IMG/VR virus record: IMGVR_UViG_2974791771_000001
Coordinates: 1-64,000 of that record
DNA length: 64,000 bases
Reading direction: 5' to 3' (one strand)
DNA from: a virus
Lineage: Duplodnaviria > Caudoviricetes
The notes under the pieces are model-generated. The model searched no databases. It was given only the letters and a program-made list of their open reading frames with translations, and was not told the origin of the DNA. The position numbers were made by a program, and so were the translations under genes. Below, piece by piece: positions 2,817-62,161 of this stretch; the stretch's first letter is position 1, and each line of letters opens with the position of its first letter.

Positions 2817-3920
2817 TCAGGCATTGAGGGACTGGCGAACCGAATCCCACGATTCGTCGCCGAGCCTCGCATACCGTTCCGTGATTGTCACCGAGCTATG
2901 CCCGAGCAGTCGGGAAACAACTTCGATCTTCACCCCGTCTTGCAGAAGCCACGACGCATACGTGTGTCGCAAATCGTGCGGACGCATCGGGCCGACAATT
3001 CGCTCGATCCCCTCTTCCGAAACCTTCGCCGCATTTCCCGCCGCAATGATCGCGTGGGAGAAATTGGTGGGTGCCCACGGCATCCCTGACGGCCCCGCAA
3101 GAATGACTCCGTGGCGCGGAGTGAGCGACTTCGGCTCATATGGAAATGAGGTCGCCTTCCCGTACCCGAATTCGGCCAGACGGTCACGCAGAGCCTTCTC
3201 CAACTCATCCGAGATTGGGACGAAACGTCGCGCCCGGTTTTTGACCGGGGTGAACACTTTCGCTTTCCGATCCCAGGCGAGCACGATTTCAATTCGCCTG
3301 TTCTTGAAATCGACATGATCCCAGTGAAGGGCAACCGCCTCACCCCATCGAGCGCCTGTCCCGATGAGCATTTGCCAAATGAACAGATTCATTCCGGCCA
3401 GGAGGGCGGAAACCGCATTTGCCTCATCGCGGGTGAGGTATCGGTCAGGCGTGGGATCCGGCTTCGGCTTTTTGACACCCACACACGGATTCGAGGGGAT
3501 CAGCTTCGCGTACACGGCAGCTTTCATCGCAGCCGACAGATTGTGCACATGCTTGGTGATTGTGGACGGAGAAAGGCTCTCAGCCGCCAATTCGTTGATC
3601 CACTCATCAATGGCGGTGTGATCGATTTCCGCGAGGGGTGTGGAACCGAACTTGGGGAGCACTCGATTCTTGAACCGGGCCTCGTCTTCGAGCTTCGTTT
3701 TGCGGGTGACGCGACGGGTCTCGAACCATTCGTCGTACCACTCCTGAAGGGTGACCTCAGAGAGCGCCTGTTCGTCCTTCCGGGCGACGGCTTCTTTGTG
3801 TGATGCCTTCTTCATCGCGTCGAGCTTGCGTGCGTGCATCCCCACCGATTTCACCTTGCCGTTGGCGTCCCGGTAGAGGCCCTGATACTTGCCCGATGGT
3901 TTCTTCACTGTCCATGCCAT
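2817..3920 (-). CDS. int: Tyrosine integrase
   Basis: Catalytic motifs GARWGE, HDLRHTY, LGHSSVTITERY; N-terminal arm-binding region. Confidence 0.95.
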   Translation of the reverse strand: MAWTVKKPSGKYQGLYRDANGKVKSVGMHARKLDAMKKASHKEAVARKDEQALSEVTLQEWYDEWFETRRVTRKTKLEDEARFKNRVLPKFGSTPLAEIDHTAIDEWINELAAESLSPSTITKHVHNLSAAMKAAVYAKLIPSNPCVGVKKPKPDPTPDRYLTRDEANAVSALLAGMNLFIWQMLIGTGARWGEAVALHWDHVDFKNRRIEIVLAWDRKAKVFTPVKNRARRFVPISDELEKALRDRLAEFGYGKATSFPYEPKSLTPRHGVILAGPSGMPWAPTNFSHAIIAAGNAAKVSEEGIERIVGPMRPHDLRHTYASWLLQDGVKIEVVSRLLGHSSVTITERYARLGDESWDSVRQSLNA

Positions 3921-4120
3921 GCGTGGAGCGTAGCAGACGGTTAGCAGATCACCGTGCTAACCAACATCCGCGCGGTTAGCAACGGTTGGCACCACGGACG
4001 GTTGAGAACGGTCACGAACGGTCACGTTCGGTTACGCAGATTCCGCCGGCAACGGTCCTGACCTGCATGTTGTGGGTGAGTATTGACTGGTCAGGGCGGT
4101 TCTGTTATGTCGGGCTGCGA

Positions 4121-4168
4121 ACGGTTTCAAAATCCGTACCGGTGTGGGTTCGACTCCCACCGGGGGCA
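4121..4168 (+). mobile_element. attP: attP core resembling the 3' half of an actinobacterial tRNA-Leu(CAA)
   Basis: ACGGTTTCAAAATCCGT anticodon arm, GTGGG-TTCGACT-CCCAC T arm, CGGGGGCA; no 5' half; flanked by CTGACCTG/CAGGTCAG and AACGGTCACG repeats; adjacent to int. Confidence 0.75.
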
Positions 4169-4246
4169 CAGGTCAGAGGCGGTTTCGGCGAGATGGGACG
4201 GGAGGGGTGGTTAGCAAATGGTTGACAACCCCCTGTTCTGGACAGC

Positions 4247-18900: not shown

Positions 18901-21900
18901 TTCGACAAGCTGCTCGGTGTGTTCTCGGGGCTCGGCAAAGCCTGGGACAAGGTGTGGGGCTGGATCAAAAAGGGCGCAGAGAACATGGGTTCTCTGTTCA
19001 AGCGTATCGCTGAGGGCATCTCAAAGGCGTTCTCGGGCATCGCGAATGTACTGAAGACTCCGATCCACCTGGTCGGCAAGCTGCTGTCCGCGATGGGCAA
19101 TCTGAAGATTCTGGGCAAGAACTTGCCTGGGTCTGATGGGTTGCGTTCTGTTGGTGACCGCCTTCAGAAGTTGCGTGTCGGTGGTGAGGTTCCTGCGGGT
19201 GTTGACGCTCAGGGCTGGTTGTTTGGTCCGGGTGGCTCTCGCGAGGATCAGGTGTTGGGTATCGACCCGGCTACGGGCCGTCCTACTGCGTTCGTGTCGC
19301 CGGAAGAGTTTGTGGTCAATGCTCATTCGGCTGCGAAGTATGCGCCGTTGGTGGAGGCTATCAACCGGGATGATCCGCGTTTGTCGGCGTTGGCTCGGCT
19401 GGATACTGGTGGCCGTCCTGACGGTAAGGCTATGTCGCGCGACCAGTTCGATACGGCTTGGCACAACTACTTTGGTCGTTACGCGAACATCTCGCGCGAG
19501 GATGCCGCAACCGGGCTGAACAAAGAAGAGTTGAGGCCGCTAGCTCCGAGTGAGATCGCGGTGTCCGGTAACGAGGGTTACGTTCGTGAGAACTACCTGG
19601 GCAACAATCCGGACATCAACCGGCTGTACCGCACTGGGCAGATGCCGCCTTCGTTCGCTGAGCGTGATCACACGTTGGCGTGGAAGGATTATCTGTCTCG
19701 TGTTGCGCCGCGTGATCTGCGTCCGCATGACCGGCGCGTGTATGACGGCGGCTACGCCCCGTACACCGATGAGCAGCGTGACGCCTGGTTCAACAAGTAT
19801 CCGGGCATCAAGGGGATGCGTGACCGTGGGCAGATGCCTCCGAGTCCCGCTGATGTTGCTCGGCAGGTTGGCCGCGAGGACAAGTTCAATCAGGAGTGGG
19901 ATCGGTACCTGAATACTCGGATGCTGAATGGCGGCGAGCAGCGTAACCGTGACGTGTTCTGGGCGAACAACCCTGAGTTGTTGAAGCGGTACAAGTCTGG
20001 TGGTTTGCCTCCGGATCGCGATCAGGACTGGCGTCTTGATCCGACATGGAAGCCTCCTGCTGAAGAGGGCGGCGAAATCAACCTCGACACGTCGGGTGGC
20101 GATTTCGAGATGCCTGAGAGCGGTAGCCCAAGTGGTGGCGGCGATTTCAGTGGCGGCAACTACGGCGGCTCTGGTGAGTGGAACCTGAACGATCCTGCGG
20201 GGTCGAATCCGGCGAACGAGAAGTCTGAGCTTCAGAAGGCTGCGGATGCGGCGGTTGCCGCCGGCCAGGCCAAGGGTATCGATGTTGCGGTTGCGATTTC
20301 GGACCCGAAGACTGGCGAGAGCTACACGGTCAATGCTGAGAAGTCGATGCCTTCAGCGTCGGAGATCAAGCTGGCTGTGGCGTTGGCTGCGGCGAAGAAG
20401 GTTGATGCCGGTGAGCTGAGTATGGATGAGGTTCGGGGTGACCTGAATCCGATGATCTCCAACTCGGACAACGAGGCCACGAACCGTCTGATCGACAAGG
20501 TTGGCGGTGTCGAAGCGGTGAATGCCGCGATGGCGGAGATGGGTGTTTCGTCTTCGGATGTTCGACTCGGGCGCAAGCTTGGGGTTGAGGTCGCGGGCGA
20601 GGATCCGAACCGGATGACGGTCACGGGCGCTAACGCGTTGCTGGGCATCATCTATCAGTCCGCTAATGGCTCGGGCAAGGTGTCGCAGAAGTCGGCGAAG
20701 TCGATCGTGGATGCGATGCGGGCTCAGACGGTTGACACCAAGTTTGGTGCGGTGTTGCCGAACGATCAGATCGCGCATAAGACGGGTGAGCTTGGCGGCT
20801 CGTCGCACGATATGGGTTACATCTTCGATGGCGATAAGTGGCTGGCTGTCAGCATCATGACGAACAAGTCTGGTGCGTCTAGCCAGGCTGACAACAATGC
20901 GATCATTCAGCAGTTCGCGAAGGACGTGTACAACAACCGTCAGGGCCAGATTGGGCAGCCTCAGGGCCAGCCGTCGGGCATGGGTGGTTCTGGCTCGGAC
21001 CTGAACATTGCTGGCGCTACCGAGTTCGCTCGGTCGATGGATGGCGTGCCGTATCAGATGGGTGGGTTCTCTCGGGATTCCATCGACTGCTCGGGCATGG
21101 TGTCTGCGGTTGTCAACGTCGCGAAGAACCTTGATCCGTTCGATTCTCGGATGAGCACGGTCACTGAGGGTGACTGGTTGAAGCAGAAGGGTGCGCTGGA
21201 AGGTCAGGGCTCGTCGGGCGATCTTCGGATCGGCTGGTGGGACCAGGGCGGTGGGGCTAATGGTCACACTGCGGGCACTTTCCCGGATGGCACGAACTTC
21301 GAATCGACTGGTCCGAAGGTGCGTATTGGTGGGCCTGTCGGCTACAACGACAAGCAGTTCACCGATCACATGTACTTCCCTGGTGGCGGCGCTACGGGCT
21401 TGAACACGACTGGCACTCCTGGTGCTACTCCGGACGGCAATTACAACGCTCCGGGTGGTGGTGAGGATCCGTGGAATACGGGCGGTCCTGATGATTCGGA
21501 AACCTACACGCCGGAAGAGTGGGCGTTGGTTCCGTGGCAGGACAAGTTGTTCCCGAAGACGGGCCAGAAGAAGGCTCCGGATGGCGAGAGCGACAAGCTG
21601 TCCATTCCGGGCTATGCGGGTCGTGCTGGTGAGATTCTGGCGCAGGGTGCGTTGGACTTCTTTGGTTTGGGAAGCTCGGTTCTGTCTGACGACAACGAGT
21701 GGAATCGTGCGTTCAATGACACCTACGAGTGGTGGGGCGATCAGGAACGTAAGAAGAATCTGAAGAAGAACAAGAAGGATGCGCCTCCTGCGGGCACTGG
21801 GGCTCGGAATGATCCGACGACTCAGCAGTTGCTTCCGGGTTCGAATCCGGGCACTACGCCTCCGGGTCAGCAGACTCCTGCTCCCGCGCCGGCCGATCCG

Positions 21901-32577: not shown

Positions 32578-32661
32578 GTGCGTCCCTCTCTTGGTGCTTA
32601 TCGGATAAGGCCGTTGGCTTGACGATTTGGATCGTAACAGCCTTATCGATAAGTCCGCTAC

Positions 32662-33450
32662 CTATTCGGCTAGCGCGTCGTCTGATCCTGTCGAGTTTGT
32701 GTCTCTTGGGGGCCAGCAGTCGGGGATTACTAGCGGCTTTGTCACTTGACGAAAGGACACGGTTGCGGCGATCCCTAAGGCGGCAATTGCGGCGGCTCTT
32801 ACCGTGTAGTCGATGGCTAGGCTCGCTTCGGGGAGGCGATGATCCGTGTTGATCAGCAGGTTGATGATGCGGGAGCTTCCAACGAGGACGCCTCCGTACG
32901 CGGCTATGCGGTACCAGCACGCTATGCGTCGCAGGCTGCTCCCCTCTTCGGCGAGTCTGATGATGGTGTTGGCGTAGCCAATGCACAGGGTGCATACGAA
33001 GATGAGCCAGATGCAGAAGATTCCCCAGAAGAAGTTTCTGCCGAGTGCGGGGAATTCACCCGTGTAGGGGTTGTCGTCCAAGCCGCCGATGAAGAACCCG
33101 ATCCAGAGCGCCACGATGAAGCCGGTCAGGACGGTGCTCGCGGTTTGGGCCATCTGTTCGTCAAGAAGGGAAAGAGTGTCGGCTAGGTGCAGGATCAGCA
33201 TGTGCACGCCGAGCATGATGAGGCTGAGGCCGAGTAGGAGGTCTGCTCGCCAGATGTCCGTGAGGTGCCCGGACAGGTCGCCTATGAAGTTGTGGGTGGG
33301 TGAGATGAGTAGGCATCCGAGGGCTATGGATGCGAGTCCGTAGTTTGCTGCCGCGAATCCGCGATGCCGCCAGAATCGGCGGCGTTGGTAGCAGGCGAGT
33401 CCGAGGAACGCGGTCGGGAGCAAGGTCACCAGGTTTAGGGGGGTAGACAT
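32662..33450 (-). CDS. Multi-pass membrane protein (about 6-7 TM)
   Basis: Repeated hydrophobic segments; downstream of the repressor. Confidence 0.75.
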   Translation of the reverse strand: MSTPLNLVTLLPTAFLGLACYQRRRFWRHRGFAAANYGLASIALGCLLISPTHNFIGDLSGHLTDIWRADLLLGLSLIMLGVHMLILHLADTLSLLDEQMAQTASTVLTGFIVALWIGFFIGGLDDNPYTGEFPALGRNFFWGIFCIWLIFVCTLCIGYANTIIRLAEEGSSLRRIACWYRIAAYGGVLVGSSRIINLLINTDHRLPEASLAIDYTVRAAAIAALGIAATVSFRQVTKPLVIPDCWPPRDTNSTGSDDALAE

Positions 33451-33533
33451 GGTGTCGGTGAAGCTTTCTGCGCATGAAAAAGGGACGCGGGATCTATCGC
33501 TCCGCGCCCCTTCTACTTGGGGGATGTCAAGTT

Positions 33534-33878
33534 TTACAGCTGTACTGCGGGGTTGAGCTTGGGTTGTCCTCTCGTTCGTGCACGGGTGATGCGGCTAGCC
33601 TTCCGGGTCGCCACCAATGTAAAACCCGGCATCTGCTCGATGTACTCGTTGGTGGCGTCGGTATCGATGAAACCGAGGTCAAGTAGTGCCTGGACTTCGT
33701 TGAAACCGTAGTGGCGGGCCACGGCGATTACGTCATCAGCCCCGACCTTGTTGGCCTTGCGTCGGTTGACGTAGGTGCCGCGCGATACGCCGAGGACTCC
33801 TGCGATGTCCTCGTGCAAGACCTGCGCCCCTGTCTGGACTGTCGCATACGCGGCTAGGTCGATCCTGCGGTTTGTCAT
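33534..33878 (-). CDS. Immunity repressor (HTH)
   Basis: HEDIAGVLGVSRGTYVNR HTH; divergent from cro-like gene. Confidence 0.8.
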   Translation of the reverse strand: MTNRRIDLAAYATVQTGAQVLHEDIAGVLGVSRGTYVNRRKANKVGADDVIAVARHYGFNEVQALLDLGFIDTDATNEYIEQMPGFTLVATRKASRITRARTRGQPKLNPAVQL

Positions 33879-33915
33879 GTTTCTCAGTCTACGTGTCACG
33901 TACGACAGCCGTCCA

Positions 33916-33931
33916 GTCCAACTTTTTGGAC
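33916..33931. promoter_or_regulatory. Operator-like palindrome GTCCAA-N4-TTGGAC, copy 1
   Basis: GTCCAActttTTGGAC. Confidence 0.75.
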
Positions 33932-33992
33932 AAGCTGTGATCTCGGTTACCGCTGGTCAGGGGCATCGCGTGGGACCAAAGACCCTAACGTC

Positions 33993-34391
33993 GTGTCCAA
34001 GTTCTTGGACGTCACGCTTGTAATTCGATCCACGTCGGCTAGTGTCTTCAACGTGATCGAGACCGCAGCGAAAGTAGCTCGCAGCAGACAGACCCCCTCG
34101 CCCATCTACCCCCGCAGTACGCCGGCCAAACGCCAGACAGCCACAAAGAAGACTTCGGCAAGGCGCACAACTGAATGGCAGTTCCGGCTCAATATGCCGA
34201 TGCTGTGGAGGCTGATGAACGATCAGGGTTTCTCGGGAGCAACTGACCTAGCGGTTCACTGCAAGGTGTCCCGCGACACGATGTCTCGGGCCTTCCGGGG
34301 AGACGCCATCACCGCCTCTCTGGCTTGCAAGGTCGCTACGGCCTTGGGTGTCCATCCGAGTGAGGTTTCACGTTTCCAGGATGTGCCATGA
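33993..34391 (+). CDS. Cro-like HTH regulator (true start probably downstream)
   Basis: ATDLAVHCKVSRDTMSRAFRG HTH; 33993 start overlaps the operator so is unlikely. Confidence 0.7.
   Translation: MSKFLDVTLVIRSTSASVFNVIETAAKVARSRQTPSPIYPRSTPAKRQTATKKTSARRTTEWQFRLNMPMLWRLMNDQGFSGATDLAVHCKVSRDTMSRAFRGDAITASLACKVATALGVHPSEVSRFQDVP
33995..34010. promoter_or_regulatory. Operator-like palindrome, copy 2
   Basis: GTCCAAgttcTTGGAC. Confidence 0.75.
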
Positions 34392-34579
34392 CGGTCAGGT
34401 ACCTGACGACCGAGCAGGTTGCCGAAGCGACAGGGTTCACGCCGAAGACGATTCGGGAGAAGGCCGTGCAGCATGTTCGGACGAATGGCCGGAAGGGGTT
34501 GCGTGGGTTCCAGACGGGGCCTAACACTCCGTGGCGGTTTCGCCCTCGTGACGTGGAGGCGTTCATAGAAGGTAGCTAG
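34388..34579 (+). CDS. xis: Excisionase-like winged-HTH protein
   Basis: YLTTEQVAEATGFTPKTIR...WRF. Confidence 0.8.
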   Translation: MTVRYLTTEQVAEATGFTPKTIREKAVQHVRTNGRKGLRGFQTGPNTPWRFRPRDVEAFIEGS

Positions 34580-34584
34580 TTTTC

Positions 34585-34627
34585 GCCTGACTGGCAGACA
34601 CGTGGGGTTCGAGTCCCCCGACAGGCA
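34585..34627 (+). ncRNA. Mini tRNA-like element (acceptor stem plus T arm only)
   Basis: GCCTGAC/GACAGGC stem; GGGG-TTCGAGT-CCCC. Confidence 0.45.
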
Positions 34628-34689
34628 CGACGGAACGTACATAGCCTGACGACAACTTGCGTGCGTTCCCTCATTCTTTCTCTCTCTCA

Positions 34690-35245
34690 ACACCCACGGT
34701 CACCGTGCGCTCTGTTTGGCGTGCGCCCGTGATGGTGTGTGTCCTTTCAGAACTCCATAGTGCTCCTGTGCTGCCCGTTGAACGGCCAGACGAAACGAGA
34801 CCTGCCCCAGGTAAGTGGGGTGAAGTGGGTGGACGGTTGACGTGTCCCTGAAGCCCTAAGGTGCTGTGTTTGGTGTCGACTTCTGTGGCGGTACAGAAGA
34901 ACCCTTATTGGGTTTGATTTTCATTAAGTACTTCGATGTTCACCGAAGATACGACTGGTGTCGGGATCCCTGGGCGGGGACTCTCTTCACCTGCATCACC
35001 GCTTCCCCAAGCTTTTGGTGATGTGTGCCGCGACCACCATCCTAGCGCGGCGAGTCTAGGCGTGTACCGCCACCTATGCCCGAGTCCATCAGATGTGGAT
35101 TCGGGAGGGGTACGAACCAGGCCGGGATGGGCCTGGGTGCGGAAGCCGCTCGTTTCAGTGAATGTCGGTGGGGGTTCGCCGACCAACGTTGGCCCGTTGA
35201 GGCAGGTTCGATCCTGGTTCCCTTGCTGAATGTCCAGTTCTTTCA
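34690..35245 (+). ncRNA. Candidate large structured non-coding RNA
   Basis: At least 10 consecutive hairpins, long-range pairings and a 3' T-loop; no credible ORF. Confidence 0.6.
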
Positions 35246-35272
35246 ATTGTTTCCACAGATTTGAGGTGTGTC

Positions 35273-35668
35273 ATGTCCACTGGTACCGCCATGCACGAAA
35301 CCTTCGAGAAGTTTGTTGCCGAAGTGCGCCGGCTCGCCAACGAAAACCCCGAGTTCATTTACAAGCCCCGAAATGTTCCGGGCCAGAACATCACCTGCCA
35401 CTACGTGAACGAGGACCGCACAGGCGGGGATTGCCTGATCGGCCAGGCGCTCTTCAACACGGGGATGCGCACAATTGAGCAACTGGATGAGGTTGAGGGC
35501 CGGGGTGCAGCCACGGTACTTCGTCGATACTTCGACGCGCCCAGTGCGCTACAGCGTTGGGCCACAGAGGTGCAGGGCGCTCAGGACGATGGTGTGCCCT
35601 GGGGTGAGGCCGTCAGGCGCACCGACGCTCGTCACGCTGAGCTGGGTGGCGTAGGTGCCATCCAGTGA
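35273..35668 (+). CDS. Hypothetical protein (paralog of 37898..38293)
   Basis: Shared CxY..C(L/I)IG and RWAxxVQxxQDxGxxWGEA motifs. Confidence 0.75.
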   Translation: MSTGTAMHETFEKFVAEVRRLANENPEFIYKPRNVPGQNITCHYVNEDRTGGDCLIGQALFNTGMRTIEQLDEVEGRGAATVLRRYFDAPSALQRWATEVQGAQDDGVPWGEAVRRTDARHAELGGVGAIQ

Positions 35669-35753
35669 AGGGCAAGCTTGAAGTCGTTTTCGCTTACCTG
35701 TGCGGTGTCTGCATCTTCGGCATCGCTTTCTACTCACTGATCGGAGGGGCCGC

Positions 35754-36320
35754 ATGATTGGCCGCGAATTGATCCGCCAAGCACCGCCCTACGACTTGCC
35801 CCCGGCCCCGAAAGGTGCGGACGGCGAACCTGTCTACCCGTACGACATGCCCCACTACGTGGACTGTGGCACCGACCCCACCTACCTGAAGATGGCCGCT
35901 GAGCATTGCTTGGCTGGCATCGACTTCGACACCGTTGTGGGCATCGGGGTTTCGGGTGCGGTCGCGTTGCCTGTCACCTCGTTGGCGACCGGGAAGCGCA
36001 TGTTGGTGCTCCGCAAGCCTGGTGTGTCTGCTCACAGCACTTCCCATACGGGTTCGTTGGGTCGGTCGTGGGTGTTCGTGGATGACTTCATTGGCGGGGG
36101 CAGCACTTTCGAGAATGTGCGCGCTCAGGTGGAGGATCTTGCGCGGAGGCACAAGTTCACGACGTCTTTCGTCGGGGCGTTTCTGTACGGCTACTACCCG
36201 AACTACGAGCAGATCGCGCATGGCGCAAAGGATCATCGTGCCGCTACGTTCTTGTCTGCTGCGTCGTTCTTCGACAGGTACTCCCATCTCGCGCGTTACC
36301 AGGACTCCGACAATGACTGA
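35754..36320 (+). CDS. Type I phosphoribosyltransferase
   Basis: PRPP-binding loop VFVDDFIGGGSTF. Confidence 0.8.
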   Translation: MIGRELIRQAPPYDLPPAPKGADGEPVYPYDMPHYVDCGTDPTYLKMAAEHCLAGIDFDTVVGIGVSGAVALPVTSLATGKRMLVLRKPGVSAHSTSHTGSLGRSWVFVDDFIGGGSTFENVRAQVEDLARRHKFTTSFVGAFLYGYYPNYEQIAHGAKDHRAATFLSAASFFDRYSHLARYQDSDND

Positions 36321-36582
36321 CCGCAAGCCGGACCCGCCGCTGGTGGAGATCGCAGGCAGCGTGCTCGCCGCCAAGCCGGACGAGATGCCTGCTGTGCTCG
36401 CCGAACTGGAAAATCAGTTTGTGGTGATGTCGCGCAGGGATTTCAACTCGATGATGGCGACAGTTGCCATGCATCAGGCCGAGTACAAGAAAGAGAATTC
36501 GACGCTGCGTCAGCTTTTGAATCTTCCGGATTTGGATGCTGTTGACCAGGCCGAGCATTTCGCCACGGAGAGTGACCTCTGA
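36313..36582 (+). CDS. Hypothetical protein
   Basis: Start re-called to ATG 36313. Confidence 0.6.
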   Translation: MTDRKPDPPLVEIAGSVLAAKPDEMPAVLAELENQFVVMSRRDFNSMMATVAMHQAEYKKENSTLRQLLNLPDLDAVDQAEHFATESDL

Positions 36583-37013
36583 TGTACAACTACGACCACT
36601 ACTACAACATGCCTCCCGAGCTGCGTGAGGCGAAAGCCCTTGTCGATGCGTGGGATACAATCGTCGCTTCGAAGACGGACCTGACGACCGCCAAGGCGCT
36701 GGTTGACAACGCCAGCAACATCCAAGCGTGGCTTGATGCTGAGAAGCGTTGGCAGAACAACGTCCGTCTGTGGCTTCAGGCCGAGAAGCGTTGGGAGTAT
36801 TCGCAAACGAAGATGAGCAAGACTTCGTATGCGGCTGCCAAGCGAGGCTGGGATGAGATCAAGAAGTATGTCCCGAACTTCGACGGGTACAGCACTTTCG
36901 AGCAGCTACCGGAGTCCCTTCAGTTCCGGTATGCGGCGTTTGCTGCTGCGGCACTTGAGATTGAGGTTCCGCCCGAGGTGAAGTCGGGTGTTCAGAATCA
37001 GGTGGTCTTGTGA
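36582..37013 (+). CDS. Hypothetical protein
   Basis: Coupled ORF. Confidence 0.7.
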   Translation: MYNYDHYYNMPPELREAKALVDAWDTIVASKTDLTTAKALVDNASNIQAWLDAEKRWQNNVRLWLQAEKRWEYSQTKMSKTSYAAAKRGWDEIKKYVPNFDGYSTFEQLPESLQFRYAAFAAAALEIEVPPEVKSGVQNQVVL

Positions 37014-56780: not shown

Positions 56781-56847
56781 CTGATCGTCAGATGGGACAT
56801 CTGCAGAGGTTTTGTAGGGTGCGCGGGTTCGAGTCCCGCCGATCAGA
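56781..56847 (+). ncRNA. tRNA-like element without a canonical anticodon arm
   Basis: CTGATCG/CGATCAG 7-bp acceptor; GCGGG-TTCGAGT-CCCGC T arm; CAGATG/CATCTG hairpin. Confidence 0.6.
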
Positions 56848-59981: not shown

Positions 59982-60118
59982 CGGCTGATAGTCCAATGGA
60001 GCGGTCCTCACATATCGAACTAGCGGGCGTGCACGCCGACGGCTAGCGAATTTCTGTGAAGGGTCCAGGACGCCCCAAATGGTGGAGGAAATGCGGGTTC
60101 GAATCCCGCGAGGCCGAC
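59982..60118 (+). ncRNA. tRNA-like RNA with about 70-nt structured insertion in the D loop
   Basis: CGGCT/GGCCG acceptor-like; GTCC/GGAC D stem; GCGGG-TTCGAAT-CCCGC; anticodon unclear. Confidence 0.5.
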
Positions 60119-60191: not shown

Positions 60192-60265
60192 CCCATGTAG
60201 CGTTGGTGTAGAGAGCACACTGGTGTGCAAAGCCAGAGGCGTGGGTGCAATTCCTGCACGTGTAC
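60192..60265 (+). tRNA. tRNA-Cys(GCA), degenerate acceptor and D arm
   Basis: CTGGT-GTGCAAA-GCCAG; T loop TGCAATT. Confidence 0.55.
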
Positions 60266-62078: not shown

Positions 62079-62161
62079 CTGGGTGCCGCCTACCCTGGTT
62101 TGGCAGCGGCCTGTAAAGCCGTCGCGGAAACGCATTGGGAGTTCAAATCTCTCCACCCAGA
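62079..62161 (+). tRNA. tRNA-Tyr(GTA)
   Basis: CTGGGTG/CACCCAG; GCGGC-CTGTAAA-GCCGT; long variable arm. Confidence 0.88.

Follow-up and report, generated by a model that had tools for sequence, protein, structure and literature searches.

A candidate large structured noncoding RNA downstream of xis in the early-gene region of Gordonia phages

Large structured noncoding RNAs are rare, and most of the known classes are ribozymes, ribonucleoprotein scaffolds or, as was recognized recently, RNA-only cages. GOLLD and ROOL, the phage RNAs to which a first-pass annotation had likened the element described here, are as a kind abundant in lytic growth and form RNA-only homo-oligomers; we know of no function for either. 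The element lies on the + strand of a 64,000-nucleotide (nt) stretch of DNA (the window) that represents the first 64 kilobases (kb) of a 76.8-kb virus record (IMG/VR, IMGVR_UViG_2974791771_000001) and comes from a Gordonia phage of the subfamily Deeyouvirinae. It spans positions 34585-35245, about 650 nt, its onset being six bases past the stop codon of xis, a gene for an excisionase-like small protein. With GOLLD and ROOL (RF01998 and RF03087; PMC12286853) it shares phage origin, a size of 500-800 nt, many helices, conserved loops and a variable part, as well as a tie to tRNA-like sequence and the lack of a known protein partner; in GOLLD, as in the Gordonia phage RNA, one half is conserved and the other variable. 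However, membership in either family does not hold, as neither the GOLLD covariance model, which describes the conserved 3' domain and its pseudoknots, nor the ROOL model matched the window (E up to 10 over 34300-35500) or the relatives (E up to 1). A tRNA-island neighborhood like that of GOLLD and ROOL was likewise rejected: the element resides in an early-gene leader, the tRNA island is about 25 kb away, and only a tRNA-like minihelix is adjacent. Moreover, the Gordonia phage RNA is known from seven phages of one subfamily. At a guess, the kinship with GOLLD and ROOL is one of kind and not of descent.

Other described systems resemble the locus in single respects. The c4 antisense RNA of phages P1 and P7 is an operon leader RNA, which RNase P excises from a polycistronic precursor via a tRNA-like fold. 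The Gordonia phage RNA would likewise be a regulatory RNA in a phage operon leader with a tRNA-like fold, its processing being proposed by analogy; but c4 measures about 77 nt and has known sites on its own operon mRNA, whereas the RNA described here measures about 650 nt, and no phage target was found for it. The lambda nutR/tR1 and HK022 put sites share the position only, directly downstream of cro at the head of the delayed-early operon; these sites are far shorter and have no known resemblance to it in sequence. tRNA-like processing elements are familiar, for example mascRNA at the 3' end of MALAT1, and RNase P, RNase Z and the CCA-adding enzyme accept acceptor/T-arm minihelices as substrates. 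The minihelix that opens our element (M1) similarly stacks an acceptor-like stem on a T-arm, without D and anticodon arms, at the boundary of two RNAs, although it encodes no CCA and its acceptor stem of 5 base pairs (bp) comes with an 11-nt bulge. Finally, cluster A mycobacteriophages lacking RepA possess noncoding RNAs of 400-500 nt that are needed for prophage replication (PMC7157519). These, too, are noncoding actinobacteriophage transcripts overlaid by small spurious open reading frames (ORFs); however, they adjoin parABS in phages without integrase, whereas the Gordonia phage has an integrase and attP, no parABS, and no similarity to them.

Comparison with relatives indicates that the locus probably encodes a real conserved structured RNA, which belongs to no known family and is apparently a new class, with at least 14 predicted helices presenting conserved single-stranded loops and linkers. 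A structured RNA without a plausible gene had been proposed at 34690-35245, just after xis. The location is borne out by the frame 34388-34579, which matches HTH_17, and the structured nature by a conserved multi-helix organization on the + strand with covarying stems. No conserved reading frame was found in the stretch, and the 97-codon frame 34936-35229, singled out earlier as one whose translation would speak against an RNA, has no counterpart of similar extent in the related phages Trax and Neville. All the stems listed in the first-pass annotation were found in place, and single-sequence folding recovers most of them; the start at 34690 was set too late, as M1 and a further hairpin lie upstream of it.

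Homologues were found in six public relatives only: the Gordonia phages Trax and Neville (Nevillevirus, Deeyouvirinae), which are the closest public relatives of the window phage, and Syleon, Octobien14, Sephiroth and Kudefre of the genus Octobienvirus, which are farther off. The seven carriers make up three lineages, namely the window phage, Trax with Neville (almost identical across the gap that follows xis), and Octobienvirus, whose copies are 96-99% identical among themselves. Trax and Neville possess full-length homologues; the four Octobienvirus copies are recognizable as conserved blocks only. No further copies emerged from exact-pattern scans of IMG/VR, which gave only Trax, Kudefre and Octobien14, from a pattern scan of one genome per prokaryote species, or from a pattern scan of JGI metagenomes, whose four matches were all unrelated on inspection. 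A search of genomes and IMG/VR anchored on the Cro-like protein gave Trax alone, and blastn with the Kudefre version returned the same 12 records and nothing further. A literature search found no paper on Deeyouvirinae or on this RNA. Within the window the element has no paralogues; the T-loop motif alone recurs, in tRNAs and in tRNA-like RNAs near a Ro60 gene.

Identity to Trax reaches 88-95% in the 5' half (34640-34940), drops to 37-60%, with indels, in the centre (34940-35120) and rises to 98% in the 3' block (35180-35239), compared with 59-75% for the xis gene just upstream. In an intergenus blastn comparison of window positions 32600-36800 with about 4 kb of each Octobienvirus locus, the 5' core of the element (34582-34759, about 70% identity) was the sole match. 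This noncoding segment is thus more tightly conserved than the adjacent genes.

Thermodynamics alone is weak evidence for structure (over the region as a whole, folding gives z-scores of -3.0 for the + strand and -2.6 for the - strand), and comparison with relatives is much stronger: the homologues collected from related phages keep the stems by compensating changes. For the 5' core, a hand-written structure of 35 pairs (M1, the outer part of hairpin M2, and hairpin M3) was evaluated on a seven-sequence MAFFT alignment. Paired cells make up 96.5% of this structure and 37-52% of slid controls, in which the 3' partners are moved by 1-3 columns; two-sided changes affect five pairs, compared with 0-1 in these controls. 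For the whole region, the predicted local fold of the window (192 pairs) was placed on a plain MAFFT alignment with Trax and Neville, yielding 10 two-sided pair changes versus 0-3 in slid controls, a count that 0/500 shuffles reached; as this fold derives from one of the aligned sequences, the paired percentage is inflated, but the counts of two-sided changes are not. In the hypervariable centre the sequence is near random between lineages, and hairpins persist with fixed loops. All six pairs of hairpin M8 are formed in every sequence of a tool-made alignment, three of them changed on both sides and one more by wobble, with no two-sided changes in slid controls. Hairpin M7, which plain MAFFT shifts one column out of register and which was counted by script and with Infernal instead, has five of its eight pairs changed on both sides. 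A covariance model of M7-M8, built from four identical Octobienvirus copies only, finds Trax and Neville at E = 4e-6, and its best match in the window is the syntenic site 34988-35052 (E = 0.07). In the Infernal alignment, which is fitted to the model and so favors pairing, M7 and M8 together show 38/38 cells paired and 9/15 pairs changed on both sides; slid controls gave 0-3 two-sided changes, and none of 500 shuffles reached 9. Inside Octobienvirus 34 columns vary, indels included: four of these make up two fully compensated U-A to C-G pairs, there are five wobble-compatible changes, and the 21 remaining columns are unpaired. Two events break a pair, one of them being offset by nearby indels.

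Pairing over longer distances is less uniform. Both long-range complements proposed earlier exist, GAAACGAG (34792) with CTCGTTTC (35149) and CCTGCC (34801) with GGCAGG (35201). The former, a candidate helix named LR1 (5' strand at 34792-34799), slides in Trax, where GACGAAAC pairs with GTTTCGTC: a 1-nt deletion drops three pairs, and three opposite-strand substitutions add three beside the GAAAC/GUUUC core. The Octobienvirus phages have lost the upstream strand by deletion; their GUUUC instead pairs with a GAAAC close by. The compensating slide is suggestive of a long-range helix. As for CCTGCC/GGCAGG, which had been read as a possible pseudoknot, the complement is there, but its bases are invariant, and both the terminal hairpin and another CCTGC copy, at 34988, are in competition with this pairing. 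Similarly, CCTAG and CTAGG are complementary as was noted, but their pairing excludes the covariation-supported hairpin GCCGCG/CGCGGC of M8 and would be at best a pseudoknot or an alternative pairing. G-rich intramolecular partners for the conserved loops were found in every lineage, at non-equivalent places.

Several signals argue for an RNA on the + strand, read with the early genes, and against DNA-level hairpins or an antisense RNA. For the 5' cores of the window, Trax and Kudefre, which average 73% identity, the structure conservation index comes to 0.81 on the + strand, compared with 0.62 for the reverse complement, and in all seven 150-nt segments examined in three phages the z-score versus shuffles is lower on the + strand. 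Wobble pairs point the same way: the 5' core contains 21 G-U cells versus 2 A-C cells, and one-sided changes almost always pass via G-U, which would be an A-C mismatch if read on the - strand.

Known families were sought with cmscan against Rfam, and none was found in the gap. Over the whole window at gathering score there was no GOLLD, ROOL or transfer-messenger RNA (tmRNA) match; at E up to 10, region 34300-35500 gave only chance-level gap matches (E 1.4 or more), and at E up to 1 the loci of Kudefre, Trax and Octobien14 matched no family. This negative result covers GOLLD, ROOL, OLE, raiA, tmRNA, RNase P, 6S, Ms1, 6C and Y-like RNAs, introns and ribozymes, and agrees with the earlier suggestion of a possibly new class. 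A tRNA (RF00005) was considered for M1, which has an acceptor-like stem and a T-arm only; ARAGORN, which called nothing anywhere in the gap, and Rfam (E up to 10) made no call. A tmRNA was dismissed as well: ARAGORN and Rfam found none, and neither a CCA end nor a tag frame could be recognized, M1 itself being a closed minihelix. Nor is M1 an attP core, being 30 kb from the integrase and attP, with a 5' strand that pairs with its own 3' strand in all seven phages.

The tRNA-like minihelix M1 (34585-34626, + strand, as are all features below) consists of the acceptor-like stem GCCTG/CAGGC with its 11-nt bulge, and of a T-arm whose canonical loop is TTCGAGT. A discriminator-like A follows, and the predicted coaxial stack measures about 12 bp. 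The outer stem is invariant in 7/7 phages; the T-stem shows a G-C to G-U change and is extended in Octobienvirus. Hairpin M2 (34629-34672) has conserved closing pairs GA.GG/CC.TC and a variable interior, with one two-sided change, three G-U-compatible changes and none broken between the window and Trax. A G-free, C/U-rich tract of 32 nt (34666-34697), unpaired in all folds, is the longest G-free run of the window and holds TCCCTCATTCTTTC (34667-34680), of which 14/14 bases are invariant across the three lineages. The two-part hairpin M3 (34690-34742), the best supported helix of the 5' core, has four of its 18 pairs changed on both sides (G-C/A-U, A-U/C-G, C-G/U-A and G-C/C-G) and one further pair compensated within Octobienvirus. 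It is followed by the conserved unpaired segment TCCTTTCAGAACTYCATA (34741-34760), which has the consensus UCCUUUCAGAACUYCAUA and is invariant in the seven phages save for one Y position; its UCCUUUC is presumably identical to part of the 16S rRNA 3' end. A separate observation concerns CGACAAC(T)T, found in the M2 loop of the window (34646-34658), Trax and Neville and upstream of M1 in Octobienvirus (Kudefre, L009:1987-1998). In each phage it can pair with a GGTGTCG island farther downstream, in Kudefre over 7 bp (CCCGACA/TGTCGGG), and it may be a relocated pseudoknot partner.

Hairpin H4 (34771-34789; CTG-C-CCGT/ACGG-C-CAG) is kept in the window, Trax and Neville, and in Octobienvirus its 5' half (TGCCCG.TGA) alone is recognizable. 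Past the 5' strand of LR1, positions 34805-34833 comprise hairpin H5 (CCCC/GGGG, with a C-G to U-G change in Trax) and then a 25-nt G-rich C-free tract (34809-34833). The sequence islands CGGTTGACGTGTCC, CCTAAGG and GGTGTCG (34834-34878) are kept in three lineages, and the predicted pairing around them varies. Hairpins H6 (CTTCTGT/ACAGAAG) and H7 (AACCC/GGGTT) occupy 34880-34925 together with the U-rich TGATTTTCATT that follows them, the stem cores being TTCTGT/ACAGAA at 34881-34898 and AACCC/GGGTT at 34900-34914. The two hairpins and the U-rich sequence look like a weak intrinsic terminator (34899-34925). The window, Trax and Neville all possess the H6-H7 pair, which Octobienvirus lacks; H6 of Trax carries the one clear C-A mismatch seen.

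The centre begins with H8 (CTTCG/CGAAG, 34931-34948) and H9, a variable peripheral element (together 34931-34991), H9 being a single hairpin in the window and a three-way junction in Trax. It is followed by the conserved TCTTCACCTGC, which extends up to 34993. M7 (34994-35023) has the stem CATCACC/GGTGATG with an inner GCTT/AAGC and the conserved loop (U)GCUUCCCC(GUU); the stem reads TCGCC/GGCGA in Trax and CACACTCC/GGGGTGTG in Kudefre. M8 (35027-35051) presents the conserved loop ACCAMCRUCCUMAG on the stem GCCGCG/CGCGGC, replaced by GCTGCG/CGCAGC in Trax and CTGGCG/CGTCAG in Kudefre. In M9 (35064-35113) the pairs GTACC/GGTAC enclose a 10-bp hairpin, CCCGAGTCCA/TGGATTCGGG, whose loop is not conserved; between the window and Trax this inner hairpin shows three two-sided and two wobble changes and none broken, and Octobienvirus has a two-hairpin branch at the site. 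M10 (35117-35136; CCAGGCC-GGGATG-GGCCTGG) becomes CGCCCC-GGGATG-GGGGCG in Trax, with the conserved loop GGGAUG unchanged and three pairs changed on both sides, and has no clear counterpart in Kudefre.

The 3' part starts with the small hairpin M11 (GCGG/CCGC), in which Trax has U-G for C-G, and with the LR1 3' strand next to it (together 35139-35156). Hairpins M12 (GTCGG/CCGAC) and M13 (CAACG/CGTTG), at 35164-35199, belong to the near-invariant 3' block, and the single Neville change, CCGAC to CTGAC, retains a G-U pair. The element ends with a T-arm-like hairpin, CAGG-TTCGAT-CCTG, and the tail TGGTTCC (35203-35245). The hairpin had been annotated as a T-loop at 35203-35216; it is present there, but its loop has 6 nt, the canonical number being 7. 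It carries GGUUCGAUCC (in RNA letters), and GGTTCGATCC and the tail TGGTTCC are present in all lineages. In Octobienvirus the terminal hairpin is larger, GCAGG...CGG-TTCGAT-CCG...CCTGC. Many of the invariant unpaired pieces of the element share UCC(C/U). Octobienvirus has an additional long 3' hairpin, GGTTCCCCCTCTCCCG...CGGGTTAGGGGTCGAACC (Kudefre L009:2628-2668 and equivalents), which has no U tract and in which one pair shows compensation when Octobien14 is compared with the other copies; this hairpin may serve as a 3' stabilizer or as a terminator that lacks a U tail.

The reading that we prefer, with a probability of about 0.4, is that of a noncoding RNA which tRNA-processing enzymes excise from the early transcript and which is stable and acts in trans. 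It would be made within the early rightward transcript starting upstream of cro, because no convincing promoter of its own was seen: a promoter scan found no promoter-like site on the + strand of the gap, and the one weak site on its - strand is not conserved in Trax. Located directly behind the xis stop codon, M1 would be a substrate for host RNase P and RNase Z: these two enzymes and the CCA-adding enzyme gauge a stack of just this kind, an acceptor-like stem on a T-arm over about 12 bp. Cuts there, for which P1 c4 RNA and the MALAT1/mascRNA pair are precedents, would separate the structured RNA from the cro-xis message. The released RNA is guessed to be stable and to act in trans, its working surfaces perhaps being invariant unpaired motifs rich in pyrimidines, namely UCCCUCAUUCUUUC and UCCUUUC, the GCUUCCCC and AUCCU loops, and GUUCCC in the tail. 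They resemble the anti-Shine-Dalgarno end of 16S rRNA and might bind a protein or purine-rich partners, for example ribosome-binding sites. A more daring, rather doubtful version pictures a new class of large phage RNA that the host's tRNA-processing enzymes would release at the minihelix and that, needing no dedicated protein, would serve as an anti-Shine-Dalgarno-like decoy for ribosome-binding sites or the ribosome, or as a polymerase modifier at the head of the 38-kb operon.

Several points weigh against the trans-acting RNA. There are only three independent lineages, too few for R-scape, and kin sequences can beat shuffles without structure. M1 is not called a tRNA by ARAGORN or the Rfam tRNA model. 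A search for complementary phage targets of the invariant motifs gave chance-level matches only, with no extended target beyond chance. The evidence that the helices make up one large ornate fold is weak: among long-range helices only LR1 is modestly supported by comparison, and folding the whole molecule gives a different result in each of the three lineages. The frame 35076-35264 is retained in the window, Trax and Neville, with its last 38-44 codons conserved. Finally, the position, ahead of a long co-oriented operon, would suit a cis-acting leader as well.

Such a leader is the main rival reading, somewhat less probable than the trans-acting RNA. The region would act as a checkpoint that separates cro and xis, the immediate-early genes, from the delayed-early operon of about 38 kb, like lambda nutR/tR1 and HK022 put, where the C/U tract and the H6-H7 terminator would stop polymerase and nascent hairpins, alone or with a phage protein, would confer resistance; alternatively, the hairpins would control processing or translation of the downstream message. 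Its place after cro-xis in the same orientation, the lack of a + strand promoter-like site of its own, the co-orientation of all Trax genes from cro to about 72 kb, the longest G-free tract of the window, the terminator-like hairpin with its U-rich tail (34899-34925), and three CCTGC copies that compete for one GCAGG, an attenuator-type alternative pairing, are all consistent with this. However, the known RNA antiterminators (put, EAR, nut) measure 70-120 nt against 650 nt and at least 14 helices here, the terminator-like hairpin is missing in Octobienvirus, and terminator-like sites in the downstream 20 kb are no commoner than in shuffles, giving no sign that antitermination is needed. In addition, Rho loading sites are degenerate, in contrast to the C/U tract with its sequence-specific invariance, and a cis-acting leader would leave M1 without a role. 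It is improbable that the region is a string of several independent small elements, with M1 as a processing signal, a 5' small RNA ending at H7, and separate stabilizing or punctuating hairpins. Most supported helices are indeed local, no long-range helix is common to the three lineages when the whole molecule is folded, the 5' core is conserved across genera by itself while the remainder has diverged, and the terminator-like site divides the region in the window and Trax. Yet the order M1, M2, C/U tract, M3, M7, M8, T-arm-like end is kept over about 650 nt in three lineages, LR1 shows its compensating slide between the window and Trax, and the presence of conserved loops upon stems that vary points to tertiary contacts or contacts with a partner, more than to plain stabilizers.

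More improbable still is an RNA-primed replication origin, in which a transcript-template hybrid would prime DNA synthesis as ColE1 RNA II does. The element is near RNA II in size, its G-rich C-free and C/U-rich G-free tracts lie 110 nt apart, the Trax annotation contains a DnaB-like helicase, SSB and a primase/polymerase and no annotated initiator or DNA polymerase, and RNA-based origins are documented in actinobacteriophages (PMC7157519). But a phage with integrase and attP needs no plasmid origin, there is no sequence similarity to any mycobacteriophage, the published examples adjoin parABS, absent here, and hybrid formation needs no conserved hairpin loops. Least probable of all, and very improbable, is that the conservation reflects small protein genes. 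Public records do annotate hypothetical proteins of 27-56 codons over the gap (genes 43-44 of Trax, 43-45 of Neville and 44-46 of Octobienvirus), and in the frame ending at 35264, with its conserved C-terminal 38-44 residues, the one Neville change is synonymous. However, the DNA there is near-invariant, the starts of this frame differ between phages, and no Shine-Dalgarno-like sequence precedes its ATG at 35076. The ORF comparison found no frame across the gap common to the Nevillevirus-type phages and Octobienvirus despite the conserved DNA blocks; within a genus similarity extends over all frames and both strands, as conserved noncoding DNA gives, with starts and lengths that differ; the conserved 5' core contains 1-nt indels; the gap frames have no Pfam or PHROG match; and the hypervariable centre retains hairpins, not peptide sequence. 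As the small genes annotated over the gap in the six public genomes are not conserved between genera and overlap covarying helices, they are probably annotation filler, and wrong. Their spans are L001:3330-3694, L002:3159-3694, L003:3215-3660, L007:2150-2718, L008:2213-2656 and L009:2213-2658 in the numbering of the individual loci.

Trax, Neville and the four Octobienvirus phages grow on Gordonia terrae 3612 and can be both grown and engineered. The RNA has a well-defined place in the lysis-lysogeny switch region, and its built-in tRNA-like module hints at release. The function is therefore approachable by deletion and loop mutation, an approach much harder for RNA classes known mainly from metagenomes.

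In the window phage, an Lsr2-like gene, a membrane protein gene and a repressor gene lie to the left of cro on the - strand. The Cro-like helix-turn-helix protein (33993-34391) and xis (34388-34579) are encoded on the + strand and are separated from the first delayed-early gene by the gap, 690 nt without a credible gene. That gene (35273-35668, + strand, ATG at 35273) heads a long co-oriented run. Its product is 95% identical to the Trax gp45 protein and 53% identical to Neville gp46; as the downstream protein differs between Trax and Neville while their RNA regions are nearly identical, this points to a mosaic junction right at the RNA 3' end. A tyrosine integrase (2817-3920, - strand; Phage_integrase, E = 2e-25) adjoins attP (about 4100-4170, or about 3940-4215 with its repeats). 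This attP contains a tRNA 3' half, with an anticodon-loop-like TTCAAAA and, at 4147, the T-arm GGTTCGACTCC; several arm-type repeats of the sequence GGTTAGCA flank it. At 21838-21848 there is a perfect T-loop motif, GGTTCGAATCC, bordered by CCGG/CCGG, which is probably due to chance. In the tRNA island of the window (60.2-62.2 kb), Rfam calls two tRNAs missed by ARAGORN (60201-60260 and 62079-62161). Canonical T-loop motifs (GGTTCGA.TCC) also occur outside the called tRNAs, at 56826, 57111, 57175 and 60096; three of them are located in the gap before a Ro60-like gene, and the one at 60096 stands just ahead of the tRNA island.

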